Below are positions 1 through 55,601 of a DNA stretch of 64,000 bases, in pieces. The stretch lies in NCBI GenBank assembly GCA_020241125.1, contig GCA_020241125.1_4708.1, one strand, 5' to 3'. Under the pieces are notes generated by a model, which was not told the origin of the DNA, searched no databases, and saw only the letters and a list, made by a program, of their open reading frames with translations. Source of the DNA: a phage. The position numbers and the translations under genes were made by a program. Position 1 is the stretch's first letter. Every line of letters begins with the position of its first letter.

Positions 1-645
1 TGCAAGATAACGATGATCGTCTAATGTAAACCCCTCTTGAGTATAGCCCGTAAACGATGCGGTGGGGGAAATGGGAATATAAGGAGGGTCGCAATAAACG
101 ACGTCACCCGGAACCACCTTTTCAAGATGCTTCTGGAACCCACCACTTACAATTTCTACCCCCCCCCCCTCGACGAAGGCAGCCTGAAGATGGTTCGCTG
201 CCAGACGCAATTCCTGTTTCGGGAAATAGACGGTCTTATACCGCCCATGCGCAACATTAAATAAACCATCACGATTATAACGACATAAGCCATTGAAACC
301 GTAACGGTTTAAATACATGAAGCAAACTGCGCGTTCCCACGGATCTTCAGCGCGGTTAAAACGTTCACGTATCTCGTAGTAGCTTCTGACGTCGGTAGGA
401 TCCGTTTGAAAAAGACGTTCCACTTCTTCGATGAAAGATTCTGGACGCGCTAGCAACGCAGACCATACTGAGAGAATATCCTCATTCGCATCACCTATCG
501 AATACGCTGGGTACTTAAGAGCAAGCGTAACAGCGCCGGAACCAACGAATGGTTCAACAAGACGCTTTCCTTTAGGTAACACTTTTTCAATCTCAGGGAT
601 AAGCCTGGTTTTGTTCCCAAGCCATTTAAGAAATGTTCTGCTCAT
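1..645 (-). CDS. dam: DNA adenine methyltransferase, Dam family (partial; C-terminus lies beyond window start)
   Basis: Own translation of minus strand from ATG at 645: MSRTFLKWLGNKTRLIPEIEKVLPKGKRLVEPFVGSGAVTLA...FNRAEDPWERAVCFMYLNRYGFNGLCRYN...VVYCDPPY; matches E. coli Dam motifs (FxGxG SAM site, LNRYGYNGLCRYN, DPPY). Open to position 1. Absent from ORF track because it runs off the edge. Confidence 0.85.
   Translation of the reverse strand, partial: MSRTFLKWLGNKTRLIPEIEKVLPKGKRLVEPFVGSGAVTLALKYPAYSIGDANEDILSVWSALLARPESFIEEVERLFQTDPTDVRSYYEIRERFNRAEDPWERAVCFMYLNRYGFNGLCRYNRDGLFNVAHGRYKTVYFPKQELRLAANHLQAAFVEGGGVEIVSGGFQKHLEKVVPGDVVYCDPPYIPISPTASFTGYTQEGFTLDDHRYLA
159..169 (-). repeat. homopolymeric C11 (G11 on coding strand) tract inside dam coding sequence
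   Basis: 11 consecutive C on plus strand; encodes E-G-G-G-V in-frame in Dam. Confidence 0.9.
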
Positions 646-1060
646 CGATTGGCGTTCCGATAATGTTGATGACTATTTCCGTTCGAACCGGATTGGTCAG
701 TACGGCCTGCATGCATTCAAGCATTGTTGGGTTATCCGTAACCACCACATCGGCGTAACACAACGGATGGCTTTCGAACGCTTCGGTATCACTTACTAAC
801 AGAACACCCATCACATTTACGTATTGCGGTATGCGACCACGAATGCGTTGCCACATGTCTTGAGTAAGGTCCTCGCTTTCTAATGCAACCACAACAACAG
901 GACTGATATTTACCGGAAAACGCGGATGCACCGTACGACGAAATGTTATCCAGTTTTCGATGTGGGATAATGCAAGTTCGAGAGAACAGCATTTTGGAGA
1001 AATCTGTATGTTTATTTGTTGAATCAATGAAAGGGGGTTTTGTACAGTCGCTTCAGCCAT
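626..1060 (-). CDS. hypothetical protein (144 aa)
   Basis: ORF track; stop/start TAA-ATG junction with upstream gene; overlaps dam start by 20 nt. Confidence 0.5.
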   Translation of the reverse strand: MAEATVQNPLSLIQQINIQISPKCCSLELALSHIENWITFRRTVHPRFPVNISPVVVVALESEDLTQDMWQRIRGRIPQYVNVMGVLLVSDTEAFESHPLCYADVVVTDNPTMLECMQAVLTNPVRTEIVINIIGTPIDEQNIS

Positions 1061-4927: not shown

Positions 4928-5555
4928 TGATACCTTCTATTAGTTGTACAGCAACTTCTTTTTCGGTGCTATAAAAGAACTTGCGATGGAACTGAACAAG
5001 AAGTTTTTCGAATTTACATTGAACGATCTTTTTGCGTTCGATATGACCCAGGGAGAGCAAAGCACCCATGCAACGTACCGCTTGTTCGAGAACTTGTTTC
5101 GCGGTATCGTGATCGTCCGGTAACGGTAAATCTTCCTCATCGTCTTTAGCGATAAGGCGTCTGATGATGTTATCGATACGTATCTCATCACCGTTAATAA
5201 AAGCCCCCTTCTCCCAGTCATCGAATCGTTGATGGATTCGACGTTGTAAGTTGGCCCTGTCTTCCATTAACTCTTTCAACTGGCTTTCTAAATGGGATAC
5301 GGTACGGCGGTCGGTTTCAGTGAAGTTTTCCGATTCTTTGTACCACCAATCATTACGCGATAGTAAATCGTTAACGCGCGAAATCGTCCGACGACACTCA
5401 CTAACAAGCCCGTCACCATTCGGTAGCTCTGTACCAAAATAGCATTTGTATTTATAACGCATAACACGGATTAAACGTTTCGCTAGAAAACCTTGCCTTT
5501 CCAGTTTCTTCTTCAGTTGTGTGTATTTCTCTTCTTTTGTTTCCATTAATTCCAT
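4914..5555 (-). CDS. hypothetical protein (213 aa)
   Basis: ORF track. Confidence 0.55.
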   Translation of the reverse strand: MELMETKEEKYTQLKKKLERQGFLAKRLIRVMRYKYKCYFGTELPNGDGLVSECRRTISRVNDLLSRNDWWYKESENFTETDRRTVSHLESQLKELMEDRANLQRRIHQRFDDWEKGAFINGDEIRIDNIIRRLIAKDDEEDLPLPDDHDTAKQVLEQAVRCMGALLSLGHIERKKIVQCKFEKLLVQFHRKFFYSTEKEVAVQLIEGINEVK

Positions 5556-5944
5556 GATGTTGTACCTCGTTCAGCAATCAGGAGAGTCGTGGTTGTGCTT
5601 TTCACTAATCTATTAAAGTCTTGATATATCCGCCTGAGGGATGATTTCAAATCACAATAACGGCTGAAATAAACCTTCAAGTCATCTTTTGTCACAGTCT
5701 CCGTATTTATTTTCGTAGAAACACCGAGATCGATAAACTCTTTTCTTAATTGGGATAATTCATCAAGAAGTCGATGATGGCTTAGATAAATAACAGATTT
5801 ATCGGATAACAACTCGCCGGTTATCCGGCTCTGGCGTTCATCGAAATATTGGAGCCGCCATTCAATTCGCTTACGTAATTTATCAAGTAAATCAACAAAA
5901 GCGGTATAGCTGTTAACGGCTAGGTTAACTTGACTCGTTATCAT
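5546..5944 (-). CDS. hypothetical protein (132 aa)
   Basis: ORF track. Confidence 0.5.
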   Translation of the reverse strand: MITSQVNLAVNSYTAFVDLLDKLRKRIEWRLQYFDERQSRITGELLSDKSVIYLSHHRLLDELSQLRKEFIDLGVSTKINTETVTKDDLKVYFSRYCDLKSSLRRIYQDFNRLVKSTTTTLLIAERGTTSWN

Positions 5945-8445: not shown

Positions 8446-8509
8446 CTCGTAGTAAAAATAAATAGAGTTTTTGTCGAGACGCCCTAATTACTTACAACGT
8501 AGGTTATCC

Positions 8510-9394
8510 TCAATAACGACCGTAGCGTTCCTCGAGCCGTTTTGGTTTTCTCAGAAGGCTATCTTTAAGTGGTACGACGTCGATATCAACACTCTCTGAG
8601 TAATAGCCGTTAGAACTACCATACCAACGGATAACAACACAACCCTTTGCAGTACGGATATGGTAAAATGTCCATTGTATACGTTCGCTGTAATAACCGT
8701 AGTTATCGGTTCTTTCCTCGGTTCTTTCTTCAGCACTGAGTATCTTTTCACCGATGATATCATTAATATCGCCGTCAATGTCTTCAAGATACACCTCTTC
8801 GCAGCAATCCTGCTGATGACAGAATTCGACAACGTTTCCATCACCACGATAGAAAAGAAGGGCGATACCGTTTCGTAATTGCTCGCTCGTTACATCAGAC
8901 ACACAATGCAAACTTTTATCGTCGGTAATCACCAAGACGTTGTTGATTACATGTCCGGCAAGCGCTCCGATCTTATTTACCGTGATAATCGGACGAACCG
9001 GTTCAGATTGAACGATAGGAATACGGACACAACCAATTAAAGCCATCCGTCCTTTCTTTGGTCTAACCGCAAGATACGGTGATTTTCTTGGGTGGTTATG
9101 TAGTCGTATTTCTACTTCGTTGAATTTAATCCCGTATGAACACAGAAAATAATTGAATAGTTTACGGAATTCCTCGGTTGCTTCTTGCAACGTGATGTTA
9201 TTTACTGTGAGTTTATGTCCCCTGAACACCCGGGTTAGATCGATAACATCCAGCGTTTTGAAATATATTTCCGTAAGGGGATGACCTGTGTATTCCAGGC
9301 AAGTAATTGTTCTTTGAACCACGATTTTAGGTTGTGCACCTTTAAAACGTTTCAGGTATTTAACACGATAGCGTGTATGATCTGATGTTAACAT
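8510..9394 (-). CDS. hypothetical protein (~294 aa; start moved to internal ATG with GGAGAGGAG RBS)
   Basis: ORF track 8510..9493; the longer N-terminus would overlap a terminator hairpin. Confidence 0.5.
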   Translation of the reverse strand: MLTSDHTRYRVKYLKRFKGAQPKIVVQRTITCLEYTGHPLTEIYFKTLDVIDLTRVFRGHKLTVNNITLQEATEEFRKLFNYFLCSYGIKFNEVEIRLHNHPRKSPYLAVRPKKGRMALIGCVRIPIVQSEPVRPIITVNKIGALAGHVINNVLVITDDKSLHCVSDVTSEQLRNGIALLFYRGDGNVVEFCHQQDCCEEVYLEDIDGDINDIIGEKILSAEERTEERTDNYGYYSERIQWTFYHIRTAKGCVVIRWYGSSNGYYSESVDIDVVPLKDSLLRKPKRLEERYGRY

Positions 9395-9467
9395 TTTAAT
9401 CTCCTCTCCCGACTTCAGAGAATTCTTAAAATCCGTTAGTTTTGATAGATAGGGTAAGACGGCATAA

Positions 9468-9490
9468 AAGCATCCCATTACGGGATGCTT
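9468..9490 (-). terminator. hairpin (AAGCATCCC/GGGATGCTT) with UUUUAUGCCG tail in minus sense
   Basis: Inverted repeat directly after stop of 9502..10050. Confidence 0.5.
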
Positions 9491-9501
9491 CATTAATCAG
9501 C

Positions 9502-18530: not shown

Positions 18531-19217
18531 TTAACACATGATTTCACCATGTTTCTTTTCAACATACGTATAAACATCATCCAAATAAGCAATGAGTTTA
18601 TCACGATCCGCACAGAGCGATTTAATCATCGCAATCTCTTTCATATAAAGCTGCTGACCTAACGCCGGATAGGTAATCCAAGCGTAGCCGTCAGGCGCAA
18701 ATTTAGAAATAAGATAATCGGCGGTTTCCTGTAATGCGAACTCTTTGCTCATCTGGCCGTAACGATGTTCGATTGCACGGATACCAAAACGTTCGCTATC
18801 GAGACGGCCCATATCCGCCAGACGAAGCACTTGAGAGGCAACCGAACTACGTGGACCAGAATACGAGGCACGATGTTCAGCAATAAGTACGCGTATCTCC
18901 TCGATGTCTTCCGGTGTGAAAATATGCTGCTCGTTACGAAGCAGGATAACCGATGCACGAATACCCCCGATAAGGTGGTGGTATGTTCTGTTTTCGTGGC
19001 AAGCGATATCATGCATAAATGCAGCGGTTAATAGACGACGACGTTCCGTGGGTCTGATGATCCCAACCACATCAGCAAGTTCATTTGCCAGTTCAACAAC
19101 GGCAAGCACATGTTCTTCTTGATGTGCAAGATCGTTCTTCCGAATATTTTCAATTACTTCAGCGCGAGTTTCCCGAGATAAGAAATTTAAACAATCCAAC
19201 GAATATAAAGATTTCAT
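18531..19217 (-). CDS. hypothetical protein (228 aa), possible HD-motif hydrolase
   Basis: AAFMHDIACHENRTYHH contains an HD dyad (weak); AAAGAGG RBS; promoter-like motif 40 nt upstream. Confidence 0.5.
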   Translation of the reverse strand: MKSLYSLDCLNFLSRETRAEVIENIRKNDLAHQEEHVLAVVELANELADVVGIIRPTERRRLLTAAFMHDIACHENRTYHHLIGGIRASVILLRNEQHIFTPEDIEEIRVLIAEHRASYSGPRSSVASQVLRLADMGRLDSERFGIRAIEHRYGQMSKEFALQETADYLISKFAPDGYAWITYPALGQQLYMKEIAMIKSLCADRDKLIAYLDDVYTYVEKKHGEIMC

Positions 19218-19262
19218 TGCACGTACCTCTTTGAATCTATTAATAAATTTTCTTTACTCACG

Positions 19263-19282
19263 TAAGTAATATAGCCGTGAAA
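19263..19282 (-). promoter_or_regulatory. conserved promoter-like motif, copy 1 (minus sense TTTCACGGCTATATTACTTA)
   Basis: One of four near-identical copies; TATATTAC core ~40 nt upstream of ATG at 19217. Confidence 0.5.
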
Positions 19283-19361
19283 GGATTTGTGTTGGTCCGT
19301 TTCGATACCCATCGTATTTTATGGATTGTCGAATGACGTCATTTTAAGGGACATCCCCGGC

Positions 19362-19395
19362 CTCCTCCCCAGGAAAGGTGTGGGGAGGAGTTTTT
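19362..19395 (+). terminator. plus-oriented terminator-like hairpin (CTCCTCCCC/GGGGAGGAG + TTTTT) in a divergent intergenic region
   Basis: 9-bp stem followed by T5, ~30 nt upstream of the SNF2 ATG; function unclear. Confidence 0.35.
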
Positions 19396-19425
19396 ATCAT
19401 ACATTCTATTAAATCGAGCGCGATT

Positions 19426-21507
19426 ATGTTGGATAGAATCAATCGTTTAATGAACCGAATAGCGGTTAAAAATCAGAGTAACAATACCGTGCATATCGGG
19501 GGTATCGATGCCTGGCGTCTTTCAGATGACATTCAGCGAATATGGGGTACCTCCCGATTTATGAAACACATGTTTCGTAATTTCTCTTCCAGTGGTCTCA
19601 GTCTCCACAACTTTTACCTTCCCGATTTCGTTTATATTCTCGAAACGATCATCGAGGCAAAGAATACTCGCAGTAATAAACGCATGCTGAAACACCTTAT
19701 TGAGGTACTGCTGCAGGAAACCTGGTTGCAAAATACCACAATCGAGCAACCTGCAATCCTCGATAAAGCACGCATGAACAAAATGCTAACGCTCTCCCTG
19801 TTCGATTATCAAGATGAGTTTATCGACATCTATAACCGTAACGTACCTAAATATCGACTGAAAGGATACGTGTGTGCGATGGGTGCGGGTGCCGGTAAAA
19901 CAATCACCGCGTTGGCTTTAAGCGCCGCAATGAACGTCGACGTATTTGTGGTCTGCTGTCCTAAGAACACCATGCGTTCAGCATGGCAATCCGATGTAAA
20001 CAAAGCCATCGTTGACCCCGCAACAGAAACCGCATTCTGGTCAGATACAATGCCACCGTCACAGCTGCAGAAAAGCGATAAGTATTATTTTCTGCATTAC
20101 GAGTCGATGGGTTTATTAAACGATGTAATGATCAAGCATAAACGCACCGCGAAGCGCGTGTTGATCGTGGTTGATGAAAGCCATAACTTCAACGACAAGA
20201 ACAGCCAACGTTCCCAACGACTGGTTGATCTCGTACAGACGATGCGTCAGACCATGAATGCGGATGTGCATGTCTTGTTTATGTCGGGTACGCCCGTTAA
20301 ACAGATGGGTTCTGAGATGATCCCCTGTTTAGGTTGTATTGACCCGATGTTCCAAGGACAGGTGGTCGATAGCTTCAAAGCAATTTACGGTTTAACCAGC
20401 AGCCGCGCTAACGATATCCTCAGACATCGTCTTGGGTTCATGATGCATGTTGTACCTAAAGAGGCTTATCGTAAAACCCGGCCGGAAGTTCAGGACGTTT
20501 ACGTGAAGCTCCCTAACGGTAGCGATTATACCATCTCGAGTATCCGCGACGACATGGCGATATTCGTACGCGATCGGGCGAAGTATTACAAGGATAACTG
20601 GGGGCATTACAGAAAGATTTTTGATGACGCCTTGGACTACTATCGTAAGACTATTCGTACCGATGGTGAACGTAAAGAGCTATCTCGATACGAATCGATT
20701 GTTGCTCGTTTCCAGAAAGGTTACGACCCCGTCAGAGACAAAGAAGATGCGATGTTCTGCAACGCGTTTGAAAAACGTTCTATTATGCCGGTTCTTCCTT
20801 CTGATTTAAGGGTTGCTTTCAAAGACGCCAAGAGCGTCATCAAGTACGTTGGGTTGAAAATTCAGGGTGAAGCGTTGGCGCGTGTTCTAGGTGCAGCCCG
20901 CATTCGGTGTCATGTCGACATGGTGGAGTACATCGACTTCGAAGGGTACATCAATAACGCTGAAGCCAAGGTGTTGATCTTCACGTCGTACGTTCAGGTG
21001 GTTGAGCGTGTCGACAACATGCTTCGCGATGCCGGTTTCTTACCGGAACCCATTTACGGGAAGACCAACAAGAACATCAACCAGATACTTGCTCGCTTAC
21101 GCGATGATCCTGACAGCGGTCCCGCTATCGCAACATTTGATAGCTTAGCCGAAGGGGTTCCGATGTTGATGTGTAACGTGGGTCTCTTCTTGAACAACCC
21201 ATGGCGTTCATCCGATGAAATCCAAGCCATCAGCCGTCTCGATCGTGTAGGGCAAACGCAACCTGTTCGGATTTATCGTTTCATGTTAGATACAGGAAGC
21301 GAGGGTAACGTTTCTACACGTAGCCACGAAATCATGGAGTTAAGTCGACAGCTTGTTGAAGAAATCACAGGCGTCAAATACGTGGTGAACAAGCAAGATG
21401 CTGTTAACTTGCAGGAAACGTTGGCGATGGAAGGATACGATCAATACGTTACCGTAAACACCACGGAATACGATATTAAACCACGACCTGCGTTCTTGGA
21501 ATGGTGA
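19426..21507 (+). CDS. SNF2-family helicase/ATPase
   Basis: GAGAGKT (Walker A), VVDESHNF (DExH), SGTPV (motif III), QAISRLDRVGQTQPVRIYRF (SNF2 motif VI). Start placed at first ATG; the track ORF starts at an upstream GTG inside the hairpin. Confidence 0.75.
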   Translation: MLDRINRLMNRIAVKNQSNNTVHIGGIDAWRLSDDIQRIWGTSRFMKHMFRNFSSSGLSLHNFYLPDFVYILETIIEAKNTRSNKRMLKHLIEVLLQETWLQNTTIEQPAILDKARMNKMLTLSLFDYQDEFIDIYNRNVPKYRLKGYVCAMGAGAGKTITALALSAAMNVDVFVVCCPKNTMRSAWQSDVNKAIVDPATETAFWSDTMPPSQLQKSDKYYFLHYESMGLLNDVMIKHKRTAKRVLIVVDESHNFNDKNSQRSQRLVDLVQTMRQTMNADVHVLFMSGTPVKQMGSEMIPCLGCIDPMFQGQVVDSFKAIYGLTSSRANDILRHRLGFMMHVVPKEAYRKTRPEVQDVYVKLPNGSDYTISSIRDDMAIFVRDRAKYYKDNWGHYRKIFDDALDYYRKTIRTDGERKELSRYESIVARFQKGYDPVRDKEDAMFCNAFEKRSIMPVLPSDLRVAFKDAKSVIKYVGLKIQGEALARVLGAARIRCHVDMVEYIDFEGYINNAEAKVLIFTSYVQVVERVDNMLRDAGFLPEPIYGKTNKNINQILARLRDDPDSGPAIATFDSLAEGVPMLMCNVGLFLNNPWRSSDEIQAISRLDRVGQTQPVRIYRFMLDTGSEGNVSTRSHEIMELSRQLVEEITGVKYVVNKQDAVNLQETLAMEGYDQYVTVNTTEYDIKPRPAFLEW

Positions 21508-21552: not shown

Positions 21553-21607
21553 GTTGCAAGATCGTATGACGTATATGCGTCGTAATTATTAAAATAGGGC
21601 AAAATAC

Positions 21608-23062
21608 ATGAAACTCAAACAAAGCTGGAAAGACGAACTTCTCGCGTTAGTAAACAGCAAAAACAGTTTACAACTGACATTAGACGATGTAAAATTTGAA
21701 CTAACGGCACCGGTAAGCGAAGTGCCTGGAACGGTCGTTGTTACAATCAAACCGAACGATAATAGTCGCTACTTTAACGAGCAGTCTCTGACCTACATCC
21801 GTCGAGACATCGCTAAAAACTTCACCGGGATCCCGTTACGGGTTATCGTTAAGCAAGATACCGCTGTAAGGGATATCATCAATACGATTGCTGAACGTTA
21901 CGGATTGGTATTTGACACAGCCGTCGACTTCCTCGAATCCGAGCTGAATAAACAAATTACGTTCGCAGACACCGGTATTAAAGACATTACGGTTCCGGTT
22001 GCAAACACGTCTTATGTTTGGGCGGGTAATCTTCAGTTCAATATTGCTAACGATACGTTAAGCTTGATTACTATCATCAAGAAAACCGATCTTACGAATC
22101 TGGTTTATCTGGATGGTGTTGAAGCTGACACATCTGGTTCGTTACTATTAGCAACCGCAGCACTTGTTAACGAACACGTAAATGAACCGATGGTTGAAAA
22201 CGAAGATATCGTTAATGAATTTATTAACGTTCTTAATACTCTAGCCAAATATGGTGACATAACCGGCGATGAATTAGATGCCGCCTTACAAGCGTACGAT
22301 GAAGCAGAAAACAGGAATAAAACCACGGTAATAACTCTTGGTGATATCCAGTGTGTTGCAACAGAAAAAGACGATTGGGAAATTGGACGTTTACGCGGTC
22401 AGATGGTTCTCGCGCTCAAATCCGATAAATACCCGGAGCCCGATAACACGTTCAGGTTGTTTACGAATGGTGGTGACGTATCGCTAACGTTAAACACAAT
22501 GAAAGATATAAGTATCGATTGGGGTGATGGGAATAAAGTAACGTTGGATGCTGAAGAAAGATACGCGCACCACACATACGCCGACAATAACCAGTACCAA
22601 ATCGAAATTGTGTCTCGTACGGACCCAGATGTGCTGCGACCAAATTATATTTCTGGGAGTGAGATAACCGAAGTAATTCACTGGGCTACTACTTCAACAA
22701 TAGCTCTGAATTTTGTTGGATGCGATAATTTAGCGACTGTTCCAGATGAGATCCCAACTTCGTGGACAACGTTGGACAGCATGTTTGAAAGTTGTACGAA
22801 TTTGAATGATCCGTCTATCTCTAACTGGAATACAAGTAACATCACATCAATGAATGGTATGTTCGGCGGATGCACTAAATTTAACCAACCTTTAGCTGCC
22901 TGGGATGTCAGCTCAGTAACTGACATTGGTGGTATGTTTAACGGATGCAACAGTTTTAACCAAGATTTAAGTGGGTGGCGATTACCGTCAGGAGTAACCC
23001 ACGACAATTACGATAGTGGTGCTTTCTCGTGGCAGACGGAACATAAACCGACGTTCCAGTAA
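21608..23062 (+). CDS. protein with C-terminal DUF285/BspA-type leucine-rich repeats (484 aa)
   Basis: C-terminal repeats NFVGCDNLATVPDEIPTSWTTLDSMFESCTNLNDPSISNWNTSNITSMNGMFGGCTKFNQPLAAWDVSSVTDIGGMFNGCNSFNQDLSGW match the FxxCxxF-NQDIS-xWDVSxVTxMxxMF pattern. Confidence 0.7.
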   Translation: MKLKQSWKDELLALVNSKNSLQLTLDDVKFELTAPVSEVPGTVVVTIKPNDNSRYFNEQSLTYIRRDIAKNFTGIPLRVIVKQDTAVRDIINTIAERYGLVFDTAVDFLESELNKQITFADTGIKDITVPVANTSYVWAGNLQFNIANDTLSLITIIKKTDLTNLVYLDGVEADTSGSLLLATAALVNEHVNEPMVENEDIVNEFINVLNTLAKYGDITGDELDAALQAYDEAENRNKTTVITLGDIQCVATEKDDWEIGRLRGQMVLALKSDKYPEPDNTFRLFTNGGDVSLTLNTMKDISIDWGDGNKVTLDAEERYAHHTYADNNQYQIEIVSRTDPDVLRPNYISGSEITEVIHWATTSTIALNFVGCDNLATVPDEIPTSWTTLDSMFESCTNLNDPSISNWNTSNITSMNGMFGGCTKFNQPLAAWDVSSVTDIGGMFNGCNSFNQDLSGWRLPSGVTHDNYDSGAFSWQTEHKPTFQ

Positions 23063-37204: not shown

Positions 37205-37257
37205 AACAACCTCTTTTCGCGGTTCCCTGTTAAAACGTCTTCTGTGACGTCTACCAC

Positions 37258-37280
37258 AAAGGTAATATAAGCGTGAATAA
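37258..37280 (-). promoter_or_regulatory. conserved promoter-like motif, copy 2 (minus sense TTATTCACGCTTATATTACCTTT)
   Basis: TATATTAC core ~58 nt upstream of ATG 37204. Confidence 0.5.
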
Positions 37281-39090: not shown

Positions 39091-40233
39091 TCATGGCAAC
39101 GTATCAAGCCAAGCAGAAACCTTTAAGGCATCAACGTTCGGGTATTTATTACGAATGCGTTCGACCAACAAACGCTTAACGTTGTCCTTTGTCAAGTCTC
39201 CACCTTTCTCGATAACGTTATTGACAAAACTGTTCTTTAATAGCGACTGGTTGTTCTTGGCGTCCGTTTTAATTGACCAAACGAAGCCTGGATACAAAGA
39301 AGGGATAGAACGAAACGTTTTCGCCGCATCGTCTTCCTTATCGCAGCGTATTCGGATATGATCACCCTTCTTCAATGGAGCCAATTCCCGTTCCAACACA
39401 CGGACAATTTCATCTCCAACAAGACCATGCAGTTTTATCGTCTTGTAGACATCTGCTTTCTTGTTTTCAACAAATTCCCACTGGTCGTTAAACGTTTCCG
39501 TTAACATATAACGGAGATACCCTTTTGGACCTTCTTCACCGTGCGCCAAGCGACCGAACGAACCGCCAACCATGATACGTCCTTTCTGGGATTGTAAGTG
39601 AATATGTCCGCTCACGATCCATCCCTGGGTCTTCTCCACCATTGCGTTATACGCATCGCTGCTATGAACACATGTCGCTTTTAACGCTTCTGGTGGAAGC
39701 TGATATTCAAACGCACCGTGCATCAGAATGAAGCCCGGCGATCCCTTCTCATCAATAAGTCGGTTCACGGCTGACAACGTCACATCCGGGTCGTGGCTGT
39801 AGTTATCTGGAAGATAAAGTACTTTTAAACCAAAGTCTTCATCAACCATGCAGAGGTCATCGTAATAACGAACTTTCGCTCCTATCTCCATGACCTCGTT
39901 CTGTTCAACGAACCACTGACTTTGCTTCTGGTCGTGTAAGTTGGTACCCTCAAGAAAGATCAACGTAATATCGTGTTTTCTTGCATACCGTAACAACCAG
40001 GTACCCCAGGCACGAACAGCAACCACGTCACTCGTCACAAACGTCGTGATACGATCGAAGACATCACCACTGAACGTAATCACATCAAGCAGCGCAGGAT
40101 CTTCTTTTGTAATGTAATAACGCAGCTGGCTAATCAGGTTTACTGTCGGTGTTTGACGATGGATAAAGTGAATATCCGACAAGTTGATTCCACGTAATAC
40201 CCCAGGCGTTTTATTTCGACTGAAGTCTCGCAT
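39091..40233 (-). CDS. calcineurin-like metallophosphoesterase, possible SbcD/Mre11-type nuclease (380 aa)
   Basis: Ordered motifs INLSDIH (D-x-H), FSGDVFD (GD-x-x-D), GTNLHD (GNHD-like), LMHGAF, SGHIH (GHxH). Confidence 0.5.
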   Translation of the reverse strand: MRDFSRNKTPGVLRGINLSDIHFIHRQTPTVNLISQLRYYITKEDPALLDVITFSGDVFDRITTFVTSDVVAVRAWGTWLLRYARKHDITLIFLEGTNLHDQKQSQWFVEQNEVMEIGAKVRYYDDLCMVDEDFGLKVLYLPDNYSHDPDVTLSAVNRLIDEKGSPGFILMHGAFEYQLPPEALKATCVHSSDAYNAMVEKTQGWIVSGHIHLQSQKGRIMVGGSFGRLAHGEEGPKGYLRYMLTETFNDQWEFVENKKADVYKTIKLHGLVGDEIVRVLERELAPLKKGDHIRIRCDKEDDAAKTFRSIPSLYPGFVWSIKTDAKNNQSLLKNSFVNNVIEKGGDLTKDNVKRLLVERIRNKYPNVDALKVSAWLDTLP

Positions 40234-42540: not shown

Positions 42541-42560
42541 TAAGTAATATAGCCGTGAAA
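42541..42560 (-). promoter_or_regulatory. conserved promoter-like motif, copy 3 (minus sense TTTCACGGCTATATTACTTA)
   Basis: Identical over 20 nt to copy 1; ~85 nt upstream of ATG 42450. Confidence 0.5.
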
Positions 42561-44346: not shown

Positions 44347-44696
44347 CACATATCTTCAGTATGAATCGCTACTTCATACCCGCAGCATTACCTGCAGCTC
44401 CTGGTGTTACCAGGACGGAGAGATCATCTCATCACCCACGAAGGGTGTTCCGCGCTACCCTCAGCGAATTCGAGGGACATGATCGTTGAACCTTCCACCG
44501 ATAATCGGTGGCTAGGCTGCTGATTAAACATTGTACGTTGGGGTGGCATCCTGGTTCAGGACTGTCGTTGAAGCCTCCCAACATCCACTCACTTATTTCC
44601 GCCTTATCGGCTCCCATAAGGGCAGAGTGGCTTTAGCCCGTCTCAGCAATTCACGGAATTCAAGCTCTTCCTTTCAGAAGGCAGGGCCTCATCTGA
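44347..44696 (-). other. putative self-splicing intron (group I-like, 350 nt, no ORF) interrupting the beta' gene
   Basis: Exon 1 frame ends ...KGYNA and exon 2 starts DFDGD, restoring the YNADFDGD motif; 5' exon ends in U and insert ends in G; insert carries GGUUCAACGAUCAUGUC and AAGAUAU near its 3' end (resembling group I R and S elements) and several stem-loops (CCUGGUAACACCAGG). Confidence 0.55.
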
Positions 44697-45947
44697 AGCA
44701 TTGTATCCCTTAAGGATCATCACGCTTAACCCGATGGTATTATCCTGCGGATCGCGTTTAACCTTGGTGATTTCAAGACATTGGTTACTGCTTCGGTCAA
44801 GTGATGGGTTTCGAACAAAACCGCACACAATCCCATCGAACGGTGTATCAGCAATAAGCTCATCGTGCAGCTCACTCATCATCGGATGATAATTACGGAC
44901 ATGTTCCGCAACGAACGCACGTGCTGCTCTCGGTGAATAACCACGATGGAATAACTTGGATTGGATATGTTCTTTATTGGTTAAAGTAAATGGTGCGTAT
45001 GGGAAATGCAGATGATAATAACGATGGTTCGCTGTTATCGAACTGATTACAGTACGCGTGGTGAATGGATGTAATGTACCTAATATGTTTTTACGTGTGA
45101 TACCTTTCTTCTTACCGATGAACTCATCGAAAATCGCCGCATGGTATTGCAGTAGCTTCAATTGCACTTTCGCCATCCAGTTTTCTTTCTTTCTGGCGCT
45201 CAAAGGTGTTGTTGGGTGATAGATACTATTCAACGTACCGATAGCATCGATCGCACCTTCCATTTTGCTATCCGCATAACGACCGGTTGGCGTATTCTCG
45301 ATAACGAACATCATGGCCGCAGGAAAGCTGATATACTGACTGAAGAACTTATCACGATGGATACGGATGAATTCTCGTAGCGTATCAACTTTCTCCGTGT
45401 TCTTCGGTCCGCGTAACGTCGGTCCTTTATACAAGATCTCCATGATGCGATCGAAGTTCTGTATAAAACTATTTACACCGCGACGTATCCCGAATACATC
45501 GAATTGCTGCTCCAGATAGTTCTTGAGTTCGATGGGTCGTTTTACATTTGGACGGTAACTGGCATCAATGAGCCACGTCATCGTTTCAAAGCTTTTGATA
45601 TTCAACTCGCTTGCCAGCACGAGATGGACCAACGGGTTAATGAACGCATCAATTCCTTCAGGAACACGCGCCCAAACCGTCGAACGAATCTCTTGTTCTG
45701 CTGGATAGGTTACAACCGTTTTACAGTTCGGACACACCGTGCCGAGCAGCTCACCACGATTGTAGAAACCACAACCACATTGTGGCGTGATATCCAACGT
45801 ATCGCTGGAGTAAACACGGGTGATAAAACTGTTTAATTTCTTCTTCTCTTCGACGACTTTTGTATCGTAATCATTCAACAAAATCGGCGTGAAAGGAAGT
45901 TCTGCGAGCTGTCTATCGAAACTCACGATATCGAGCATGATGGCCAT
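44697..45947 (-). CDS. RNA polymerase beta'-like N-terminal subunit, exon 1 (417 aa to the GYNA junction)
   Basis: N-terminal zinc finger CGCGFYNRGELLGTVCPNCKTVV (cf beta' CxC...CxxC); TAGGAG RBS; unspliced frame continues 17 codons to a stop. Confidence 0.65.
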
Positions 45948-47935: not shown

Positions 47936-48004
47936 TTGGGATTCCTCTTTTCTTAAACTTTATTAAATGACGTCATTGAATCAGCTTCTACTCGCTCATT
48001 CACC

Positions 48005-48024
48005 TAGGTAATATAACCCTGAAA
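48005..48024 (-). promoter_or_regulatory. conserved promoter-like motif, copy 4 (minus sense TTTCAGGGTTATATTACCTA)
   Basis: TATATTAC core ~73 nt upstream of ATG 47935. Confidence 0.5.
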
Positions 48025-48189
48025 TTTTTTTCAATATTGGTGTAACCACATTGAACGATATAAACCCCTAGGCGAACGCTGCCGAGAAGCAACATTCTTT
48101 CTACATATAATCAGGATATGTCTGTAAACTTTTACTTCTCTTATTGAGAGTAATGTCATATCCGTTTACCATCTTCTTACGGAGTTCGT

Positions 48190-55189: not shown

Positions 55190-55280
55190 ACTCTTTTCCT
55201 AAGTCCCCATTGTTTATACACACGATATCTGGGAATAGTTAAAATATACGGCGTAAAACGAAGCAGGAGAGTTTCTGACG

Positions 55281-55601
55281 TCATTTTCTCCCTCTTCGAA
55301 TACTACCGATACCTCTTTCGTCTAAGACGTCCCAGGCACGCTTTATTTCATCCTCCGTTGCTCTGGTATCTGGAGGGACAACCATAACACAGTCGTGGAA
55401 CGGCCAATGTGTAGGTCTGGGGTTAGCGAACAAATCATCCCATTCAAATGTCCATTCTTTCTTTGAGCGATTGTAGTAGAGCGTAAGGTACGTGTTGGTA
55501 TACGCCGGATAACCGCGCATAACTTCAATATCCTTACGATCTTGCCGTTCCTGATTCCAATCGTTAAACCGCTTTCTTATTTTCTCCCACCACTTTCCCA
55601 T
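55281..55601 (-). CDS. hypothetical protein (106 aa)
   Basis: ORF track. Confidence 0.5.
   Translation of the reverse strand: MGKWWEKIRKRFNDWNQERQDRKDIEVMRGYPAYTNTYLTLYYNRSKKEWTFEWDDLFANPRPTHWPFHDCVMVVPPDTRATEDEIKRAWDVLDERGIGSIRRGRK

Follow-up and report, generated by a model that had tools for sequence, protein, structure and literature searches.

A palindrome in the chimallin leader of nucleus-forming jumbo phages, a candidate operator with a second copy in Goslar-type genomes

Nucleus-forming jumbo phages depend on chimallin as their first essential product; in its absence the phage nucleus does not form and the infection stops. We know of no sequence-specific transcription factor for the polymerases of chimalliviruses. 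Among the closest described systems are the promoters and leaders of phiKZ-type phages. Their early promoters contain an AT-rich motif of ~10 nt centred at -10 and are used by the virion RNA polymerase, and the late-promoter motif of phiKZ is T(-3)ATG(+1) (PMC7598289). The phiKZ chimallin gene (PHIKZ054) has a primary start site with an early motif and a secondary one with a middle motif, TACT centred 22 nt upstream (PMC8244752). An extra factor is suspected at the phiKZ middle promoters because the non-virion RNA polymerase alone does not use them in vitro (PMC7598289). Terminators within phiKZ 5' UTRs yield short RNAs of ~71 nt, for example upstream of PHIKZ221 (PMC10914365). For antisense oligomers tiled from -37 to +44 of phiKZ chmA, the accessible part of the published account reports effects only near the ribosome-binding site or the AUG.

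The DNA analysed here is a stretch of 64,000 nt (the window; contig GCA_020241125.1_4708.1 of GenBank assembly GCA_020241125.1) from a close relative of the E. coli jumbo phage Goslar, a nucleus-forming chimallivirus, with 96-98% identity. Five blocks of the window are collinear with Escherichia phage vB_EcoM_Goslar (family Chimalliviridae; complete genome 237,307 bp) at 93.5-97.8% identity. About 1.47 kb of Goslar (168194-169661), comprising the HNH endonuclease gp186 and an annotated group I intron, is missing from the window at 44689-44698, beside the RNA polymerase beta' gene, so the window phage carries an intron-less allele. Four segments of the window (1-660, 5544-5941, 8509-9405 and 22155-23030) do not align with anything at the corresponding place in Goslar; among them are a ~0.9-kb insertion that holds most of a 327-aa ORF (8510-9493) and the divergent 3' end of the DUF285 gene.

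Two intergenic copies of a 12-bp palindrome

The perfect 12-bp palindrome AATGACGTCATT occurs exactly twice in the window, and the complete Goslar genome likewise has two copies and no more, at the corresponding places. Both copies are intergenic, although only 7.4% of the window and 7.6% of the Goslar genome are non-coding. Site 1 ends 83 nt before the ATG of an SNF2/DEAD-type helicase gene. This ATG, at 19426, matches the annotated start in Goslar, and the GTG at 19378 merely opens the longest ORF. Site 2 lies between a promoter motif and the ATG (47935) of a 631-aa gene that encodes chimallin (Table 1). The preliminary description had placed both copies correctly; the window contains no third exact copy, and the count over the whole Goslar genome finds none scattered into coding sequence.

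Table 1 Features of the two intergenic regions and chimallin-leader palindromes of related phages. Spacings run from the end of the promoter core to the palindrome centre and from the centre to the ATG; a slash marks the centre of a palindrome.
Feature	Position in window	Strand	Core to centre (nt)	Centre to ATG (nt)	Remarks
HD-domain gene	18531-19217	-			HD domain confirmed by Pfam
HD-gene early promoter motif TTTCACGGCTATATTAC	19266..19282	-			motif search; points away from site 1
Early-promoter motif TTTCAnGGnTATATTAC(yTAnGTGA)	19266-19282, 37262-37278, 42544-42560, 48008-48024	-			all sites on the minus strand
Non-palindromic block ATTTTATGG-AT-TGTCGAATGA	19316..19336	+			has TATG and the left half of site 1
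Site 1, second copy of AATGACGTCATT	19332..19343	.			palindrome only in Goslar-type phages
Hairpin and T-run, intrinsic-terminator-like	19361..19395	+			annotated terminator in Goslar, -14.8 kcal/mol; between block and helicase start codon
SNF2/DEAD-type helicase gene	19426..21507	+			PF00176, PF00271, PF04851; 3' of site 1
Chimallin (nuclear shell protein) gene, 631 aa	46040..47935	-			98.7% identity to Goslar protein annotated 'nuclear shell protein'; Pfam PF25677
Site 2, palindrome AATGACGTCATT	47966..47977	.			5' leader of chimallin gene
Predicted 5' stem-loop of chimallin early transcript	47977..48002	-			directly adjoins palindrome; folding prediction
Chimallin early promoter motif (virion RNA polymerase type) TTTCAGGGTTATATTACCTAGGTGA	48000..48024	-			motif search; conserved in relatives
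Goslar, AATGAC/GTCATT			36	36	
Lineage B, TTGACGTCAA			34	33	TTGAC/GTCAA
Lineage C, TTGTCGACAA			36	34	TTGTC/GACAA
Lineage C2, TGTCGACA			34	35	TGTC/GACA
Lineage D, AAAACATTCGAATGTTTT			44	23	AAAACATTC/GAATGTTTT
Lineage E, CAATTCGAATTG			37	39	CAATTC/GAATTG
phiKZ, TTCTTGATCAAGAA			41	31	TTCTTGA/TCAAGAA
RVTF4, TTCTTGATCAAGAA			40	32	TTCTTGA/TCAAGAA
PhiPA3, TACTTGATCAAGTA			40	35	TACTTGA/TCAAGTA
RAY, ACATTAGCTAATGT			32	37	ACATTAG/CTAATGT
SA002, CAATCGCGATTG			31	54	CAATCG/CGATTG
SNUABM48, CAATCGCGATTG			30	36	CAATCG/CGATTG
LucasX, TGTTCGCGCGAACA				43	TGTTCGC/GCGAACA; promoter core not found

The recurrence had been taken as unlikely by chance. As such it says little, since a 12-bp palindrome of some kind recurs in 19 of 300 sequences simulated from the window with a first-order Markov model (6%), and the 88 palindromic 12-mer positions in Goslar lead to an expectation of about one recurring pair, with one observed; what is unusual is that both copies are intergenic. 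When site 2 is fixed beforehand by its conservation, the expectation for a second exact copy of the 12-mer falls to 0.018-0.041 per Goslar genome, and to ~0.0014-0.003 for a copy at an intergenic location.

The further half-sites that had been linked to the palindrome exist: GTGACGTC is present at 37244-37251, and TGACGTA lies upstream of the DUF285 gene, at 21567-21573 rather than 21574. Their relatedness finds no support, as both occur at chance level and the region upstream of the DUF285 gene shows no conservation in relatives. TGACGT or ACGTCA has 58 occurrences in the window, most of them within coding sequence; the core TGACGTCA is found three times against 2.0 expected, and variants of AATGACGTCATT with up to three mismatches 58 times against 46 expected. 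At such frequencies the half-sites at 37244 and ~21570 were rejected as related operators. The string (A/T)ATGACGT was discarded as a general promoter motif, its seven scattered upstream occurrences forming no coherent class. The half-site at 37244-37251 sits inside what appears by eye to be a 5' inverted repeat of another early transcript. The third TGACGTCA copy, at 55274-55285, reads AATGACGTCAGA on the minus strand (10 of 12 bases matching). It lies in the gap before a 325-aa gene, where it overlaps the stop codon of ORF 55281-55601, and is probably due to chance.

On the minus strand, each of the two intergenic regions has a copy of the motif TTTCAnGGnTATATTAC. In its extended form, TTTCAnGGnTATATTACyTAnGTGA, it is found four times in the window and 11 times in Goslar, always on the minus strand. 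The motif upstream of chimallin is kept in relatives whose chimallin is only 47% identical, and its core, TATATTAC, is that of the phiKZ early promoters. The match to the published description of early promoters, with a start-site distance taken from phiKZ and AR9, is the basis for the early start sites predicted below. Neither copy of the palindrome overlaps a promoter core: site 1 is separated by ~64 nt from the core of the early promoter of the HD gene, on its upstream side, and site 2 is centred ~30 nt downstream of the predicted early start of chimallin.

Position and symmetry of the chimallin-leader palindrome

The centre of site 2 is 36 nt from both the end of the promoter core TATATTAC and the ATG, within a leader of 72 nt. 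Comparison among the closest relatives does not discriminate, both intergenic regions being nearly invariant in the four genomes of the Goslar group. The 254-bp region between chimallin and the divergent 364-aa gene (47936-48189) is virtually identical in these four, despite differences of up to 4% in the chimallin protein, and the Goslar-type IMG/VR genomes are uninformative at site 2 because they are identical across the whole intergenic region. Further blocks in 47936-48189, for example AGGGGTTTATATCG and TATATGTAGAAAGAATG, are also kept in lineage C.

More distant relatives carry a perfect palindrome of different sequence at the same place. Of 16 chimalliviruses checked, 13 have one of 8-18 bp in the chimallin leader, with a length of at least 10 bp in 12, and three (Noxifer, Eowyn and AgentSmith) have no palindrome at this position. 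In the 12 of the 13 in which a core was found, the distance from promoter core to palindrome centre is 30-44 nt; from the centre to the ATG it is 23-54 nt in all 13. Lineages B-E were collected by protein searches and share the gene order DNA polymerase, divergent 364-aa gene, chimallin; B, C, C2, D and E all keep both the promoter core and the palindrome. Shuffling the leaders gives P = 0.0008-0.13 for individual leaders, and a Fisher combination over 11 clade representatives, which include the three without a palindrome, gives p = 1.5e-9.

The two halves have changed together at least five times between lineages. Paired changes from A:T to T:A are seen at positions 5/8 (lineages A and B versus C), 2/11 (A versus B) and 2/13 (phiKZ versus PhiPA3), and two further paired half-site changes separate lineages D and E. 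The 5/8 pair belongs to the central tetranucleotide (ACGT versus TCGA) and cannot form in a hairpin, where it would have to close a loop of just 2 nt; as this pair nevertheless co-changes, the symmetry is that of a duplex. In all 13 palindromes the central four bases are self-complementary.

The sequence of the palindrome follows the phage clade. phiKZ, RVTF4 and PhiPA3 share the core CTTGATCAAG, and SA002 and SNUABM48 share CAATCGCGATTG, while the flanking leaders have diverged, as would be expected of a conserved trans-acting specificity. RAY and SNUABM48 both infect Erwinia amylovora and carry different palindromes, so the type follows the clade rather than the host, and host factors were rejected as its source.

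The element is also specific to chimallin. Only one of 11 predicted early leaders in Goslar, that of chimallin, has a palindrome of at least 10 bp, and among the 32 TATATTAC sites listed for phiKZ only the chimallin leader has one of at least 10 bp ~40 nt after the core. The phiKZ palindrome, even its 10-bp core, is single-copy in the 280-kb genome, so a putative factor would there serve a single site. No extra copies of the lineage palindromes occur in the ~14-45 kb available for each of lineages B-E, and among the IMG/VR matches listed for the phiKZ 14-mer there are random matches only. The chimallin-leader palindrome is thus apparently a family-wide, chimallin-specific cis-element that has not been described before; our literature search, which covered its sources in part, found no published description.

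Several features were noted in passing. In the phiKZ chimallin leader (45580-45625), three perfect palindromes follow one another, TAGTATACTA, CTAAGTACTTAG and TTCTTGATCAAGAA, and the TACT of the published middle-promoter motif is part of the first two. phiKZ also has recurring GC-rich 16-bp palindromes, CCTCCCCTAGGGGAGG three times (29351, 77867 and 84960) and CCCTCCATATGGAGGG twice (142925 and 266625), which are probably shared, possibly bidirectional, terminator stems. In PhiPA3 (HQ630627.1), an ATG at ~39571 is preceded by cgtaaaggaaaaagac and aligns with the start context of phiKZ, whereas the annotated chimallin start is at 39646. This suggests that the start is annotated 75 nt too far downstream; the ATG at ~39571 restores the usual spacing (35 nt).

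The second copy between the HD-domain and helicase genes

Site 1 differs from site 2 in its conservation. The corresponding position reads AATGACCCCAAC in lineage C and AATGATCCCTTA in lineage B, and relatives carry AATGACCCC or AATGATCCC where the Goslar-type phages have the palindrome; after AATGA, lineages B and C continue with CCCC or TCCC. What these lineages (helicase 58-62% identical) keep is the early promoter, a block ATTTTATGG(N2-3)TGTCGAATGA, and a hairpin and T-run of different sequence. The block is invariant in three lineages amid diverged intergenic DNA. It occurs once in the Goslar genome and was therefore rejected as a repeated promoter class. Since relatives keep the block without the palindrome, the palindrome at site 1 is a Goslar-specific addition to a different conserved element.

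The block contains a TATG (19320-19323), conserved in the three lineages; the palindrome at site 1 starts 9 nt downstream and spans 9-20 nt after it. By analogy with the phiKZ late-promoter motif, which it matches, this TATG is a putative promoter; AATGACGTCATT itself contains AATG, not TATG. Upstream of Goslar genes, TATG in the sense orientation is enriched twofold (71 versus 37 expected), consistent with a phiKZ-like late-promoter start motif in Goslar. A scan of 19100-19500 for sigma-70 promoters and terminators returned nothing and also missed the annotated terminator at 19361-19395, because its loop is longer than 8 nt. By comparison with the phiKZ short RNAs, the arrangement at 19316-19395 may give a predicted leader RNA of ~73 nt or act as an attenuator.

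A functional second site here is plausible. The competing explanation is that only the chimallin-leader copy is functional and that site 1 is a coincidence, in which the block supplies AATGA(C) and the right half was completed by drift. Lineages B and C, which conserve only ATTTTATGG..TGTCGAATGA, fit such an origin, as do the single copy in phiKZ and the fact that chance alone would let about one 12-bp palindrome recur in each genome; selection on site 1 could not show among the Goslar-type genomes, which differ too little from one another. The low expectation for a second exact copy given above, above all at an intergenic location, speaks against it, and we consider a coincidence possible though less likely than not.

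Candidate mechanisms and comparison with known systems

The best reading of the chimallin-leader palindrome is an operator for a putative phage-encoded dimeric DNA-binding protein. The palindrome, perfect and without a gap, follows the early promoter core at a distance of ~30-44 nt, with a 5' stem-loop before it and the ribosome-binding site behind it. Its double-stranded DNA would be the target of a homodimeric protein that recognises a specific sequence, a preference that would drift as phage lineages diverge. From its binding site, ~24-35 nt downstream of the predicted early start, such a protein could modulate transcription into chimallin, most probably as a roadblock to, or a shut-off of, early transcription by the virion polymerase as the infection enters its middle phase. 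In Goslar-type phages, the identical second site 9-20 nt after TATG would place the SNF2 helicase under the same factor. We assign a probability of roughly 0.4 to this explanation as a whole, that is, a duplex-DNA site for a putative protein in the chimallin leader with a second site in the helicase leader of Goslar-type phages. That a dimeric phage protein on the single leader palindrome times or limits the output of shell protein, and has also captured the Goslar-type helicase leader, is advanced only tentatively.

The preliminary description had likewise proposed an operator for a dimeric regulator. For the chimallin-leader copy this is the best-supported reading, as its position is kept and its halves co-change. 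The idea of one operator shared by several promoters is not borne out: site 1 is confined to Goslar-type phages, the phiKZ palindrome is single-copy, the half-sites are at chance level, and no promoter core is overlapped. This last point also counts against an operator in general, as do the single phiKZ copy, the lack of further copies in the partial contigs of lineages B-E, the missing site-1 palindrome in lineages B and C and the three of 16 phages without a chimallin-leader palindrome. Early transcription is reported to go on inside a vesicle or nucleus, where a protein made during the infection must first get in, which is a further argument against it. Domain searches offer Goslar gp119 (Myb/helix-turn-helix) and, weakly, gp115 as no more than DNA-binding candidates. 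The divergent 364-aa neighbour is not a candidate because it has no Pfam domain and sits at the position of PHIKZ052, a structural head protein in phiKZ.

Alternatively, the element could act in the chimallin mRNA and tune translation or stability, either through a weak hairpin or by pairing between RNA molecules. The partners could be two mRNAs or, in Goslar, the chimallin mRNA and a short helicase-leader RNA with the same palindrome; a start at the TATG of site 1 would produce such an RNA, ending at the 19361-19395 terminator, and phiKZ makes comparable short 5' UTR RNAs (PMC10914365). The location is suitable: the element is always in the transcribed leader, directly after a predicted 5' stem-loop, and the self-complementary stretch lies just 5' of the AU-rich ribosome-loading region. 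The predicted homoduplex of the 12-mer has -14.7 kcal/mol, and the other versions range from -12.7 to -20.1. Folding predictions, in contrast, give no stable hairpin or intrinsic terminator at the palindrome. Folded as isolated RNAs, the palindromes of Goslar and of lineages B, C and E come to 0 kcal/mol and the remaining ones to between -0.5 and -2.2 kcal/mol, and a hairpin gives no reason for self-complementary central bases in 13 of 13 palindromes. Minimum-free-energy folds of 12 leaders place a stem-loop ahead of the palindrome in nearly all, and RNAalifold on five Goslar-like leaders recovers a 5' hairpin, with five of 10 pairs kept through two-sided changes, and leaves the palindrome unpaired. 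An Rfam 15 search of both site regions gave just chance-level snoRNA matches (E = 2.6 and 4.1), far below the gathering scores. In lineages B and C the proposed leader-RNA partner does not carry the palindrome, and in phiKZ the chimallin copy is the only one. To our knowledge, there is neither a precedent for mRNA dimerisation in phages, which weighs against the proposal, nor a reason for phage mRNAs to dimerise. Since the changes are two-sided and the RNA is unstable and unpaired, the conserved property is duplex symmetry, which points to a two-fold symmetric protein on DNA and less to an RNA-RNA duplex. A role in the mRNA thus appears doubtful.

The palindrome could also mark a second, internal start used by the non-virion RNA polymerase in the middle phase; it would then belong to an initiator or to a region that binds a factor, and would not be a repressor site. 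In the phiKZ leader, counting 22 nt on from the two TACT motifs leads to positions 40-41 and 47-48, which fall within the 14-bp palindrome (35-48) or at its edge, and the resulting 5' UTR of 25-32 nt would be at or just under the reported typical 31-40 nt. The failure of the phiKZ non-virion polymerase to use middle promoters on its own in vitro (PMC7598289) would suit such a factor-binding region, and site 1 lies just after the conserved TATG. The published middle and late promoter motifs, however, are not palindromic, the palindrome is unique in phiKZ against 33 reported middle promoters (PMC10914365), and Goslar-like leaders have no TACT at a matching distance. We regard an internal start as improbable. 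That neither copy is functional, both being chance palindromes in AT-rich intergenic DNA, would agree with the 6% of random windows that show some recurring 12-bp palindrome, and is extremely improbable in view of a palindrome at the same position in 13 of 16 leaders, with co-changing halves and a combined p = 1.5e-9.

If the operator reading is correct, its protein would be the first sequence-specific transcription regulator acting with a phage's own multisubunit RNA polymerases. The element makes the timing and dosage of shell-protein expression directly testable. Its position is conserved across phages of Pseudomonas, Erwinia, Salmonella, Xanthomonas and E. coli, and it is a practical landmark for annotation, as for the chimallin start of PhiPA3.

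Among phage systems, there is a likeness to the phiKZ-type early promoters: chimallin is preceded by the AT-rich core TATATTAC in both cases, and the leader has the same length of ~70 nt. The promoter studies of phiKZ (Ceyssens 2014 as cited in PMC7598289; PMC8244752) describe motifs upstream of start sites, and their accessible portions mention no leader palindrome; the published geometry of the dual start sites of PHIKZ054 (Wicke 2021, PMC8244752) puts the secondary start at the palindrome. Site 1 resembles the phiKZ short RNAs made by premature termination (Putzeys 2024, PMC10914365) in lying between a TATG block and a hairpin with T-run, and the ~73-nt RNA, here predicted from sequence, compares with the 71-nt RNA upstream of PHIKZ221; palindromes are not reported in those RNAs (PMC10914365). 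The HIV-1 DIS loop is likewise a self-complementary 5' leader sequence able to pair between two RNAs, whereas the palindrome here lies outside any stable stem-loop; the likeness concerns only a role in the mRNA. The eukaryotic cAMP response element TGACGTCA, bound by bZIP proteins (CREB/ATF), is identical to the 8-bp core of the Goslar palindrome. This is a coincidence of sequence, and a bZIP protein is not expected: relatives use TGTCGACA, TTCGAA, TTGATCAA, TAGCTA and TCGCGA cores, so what is conserved is the symmetry and not this sequence.

Classic operators differ from the element in several respects. The element is usually present once per genome, with no array, and is centred ~30 nt past the predicted start, not over the promoter, and the polymerases involved are phage multisubunit enzymes independent of host sigma factors. 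MetJ requires at least two tandem boxes, while tandem AGACGTCT-like 8-bp boxes are absent here and each of the two sites has a single GACGTC core. Even so, the operators of lambda Cro/CI, P22 Arc/Mnt and MetJ are, like the element, short stretches of two-fold symmetric DNA near a promoter whose halves change together, and the CG-centred core of 8-12 bp resembles the sites of ribbon-helix-helix proteins, the MetJ 'metbox' AGACGTCT sharing its GACGTC.
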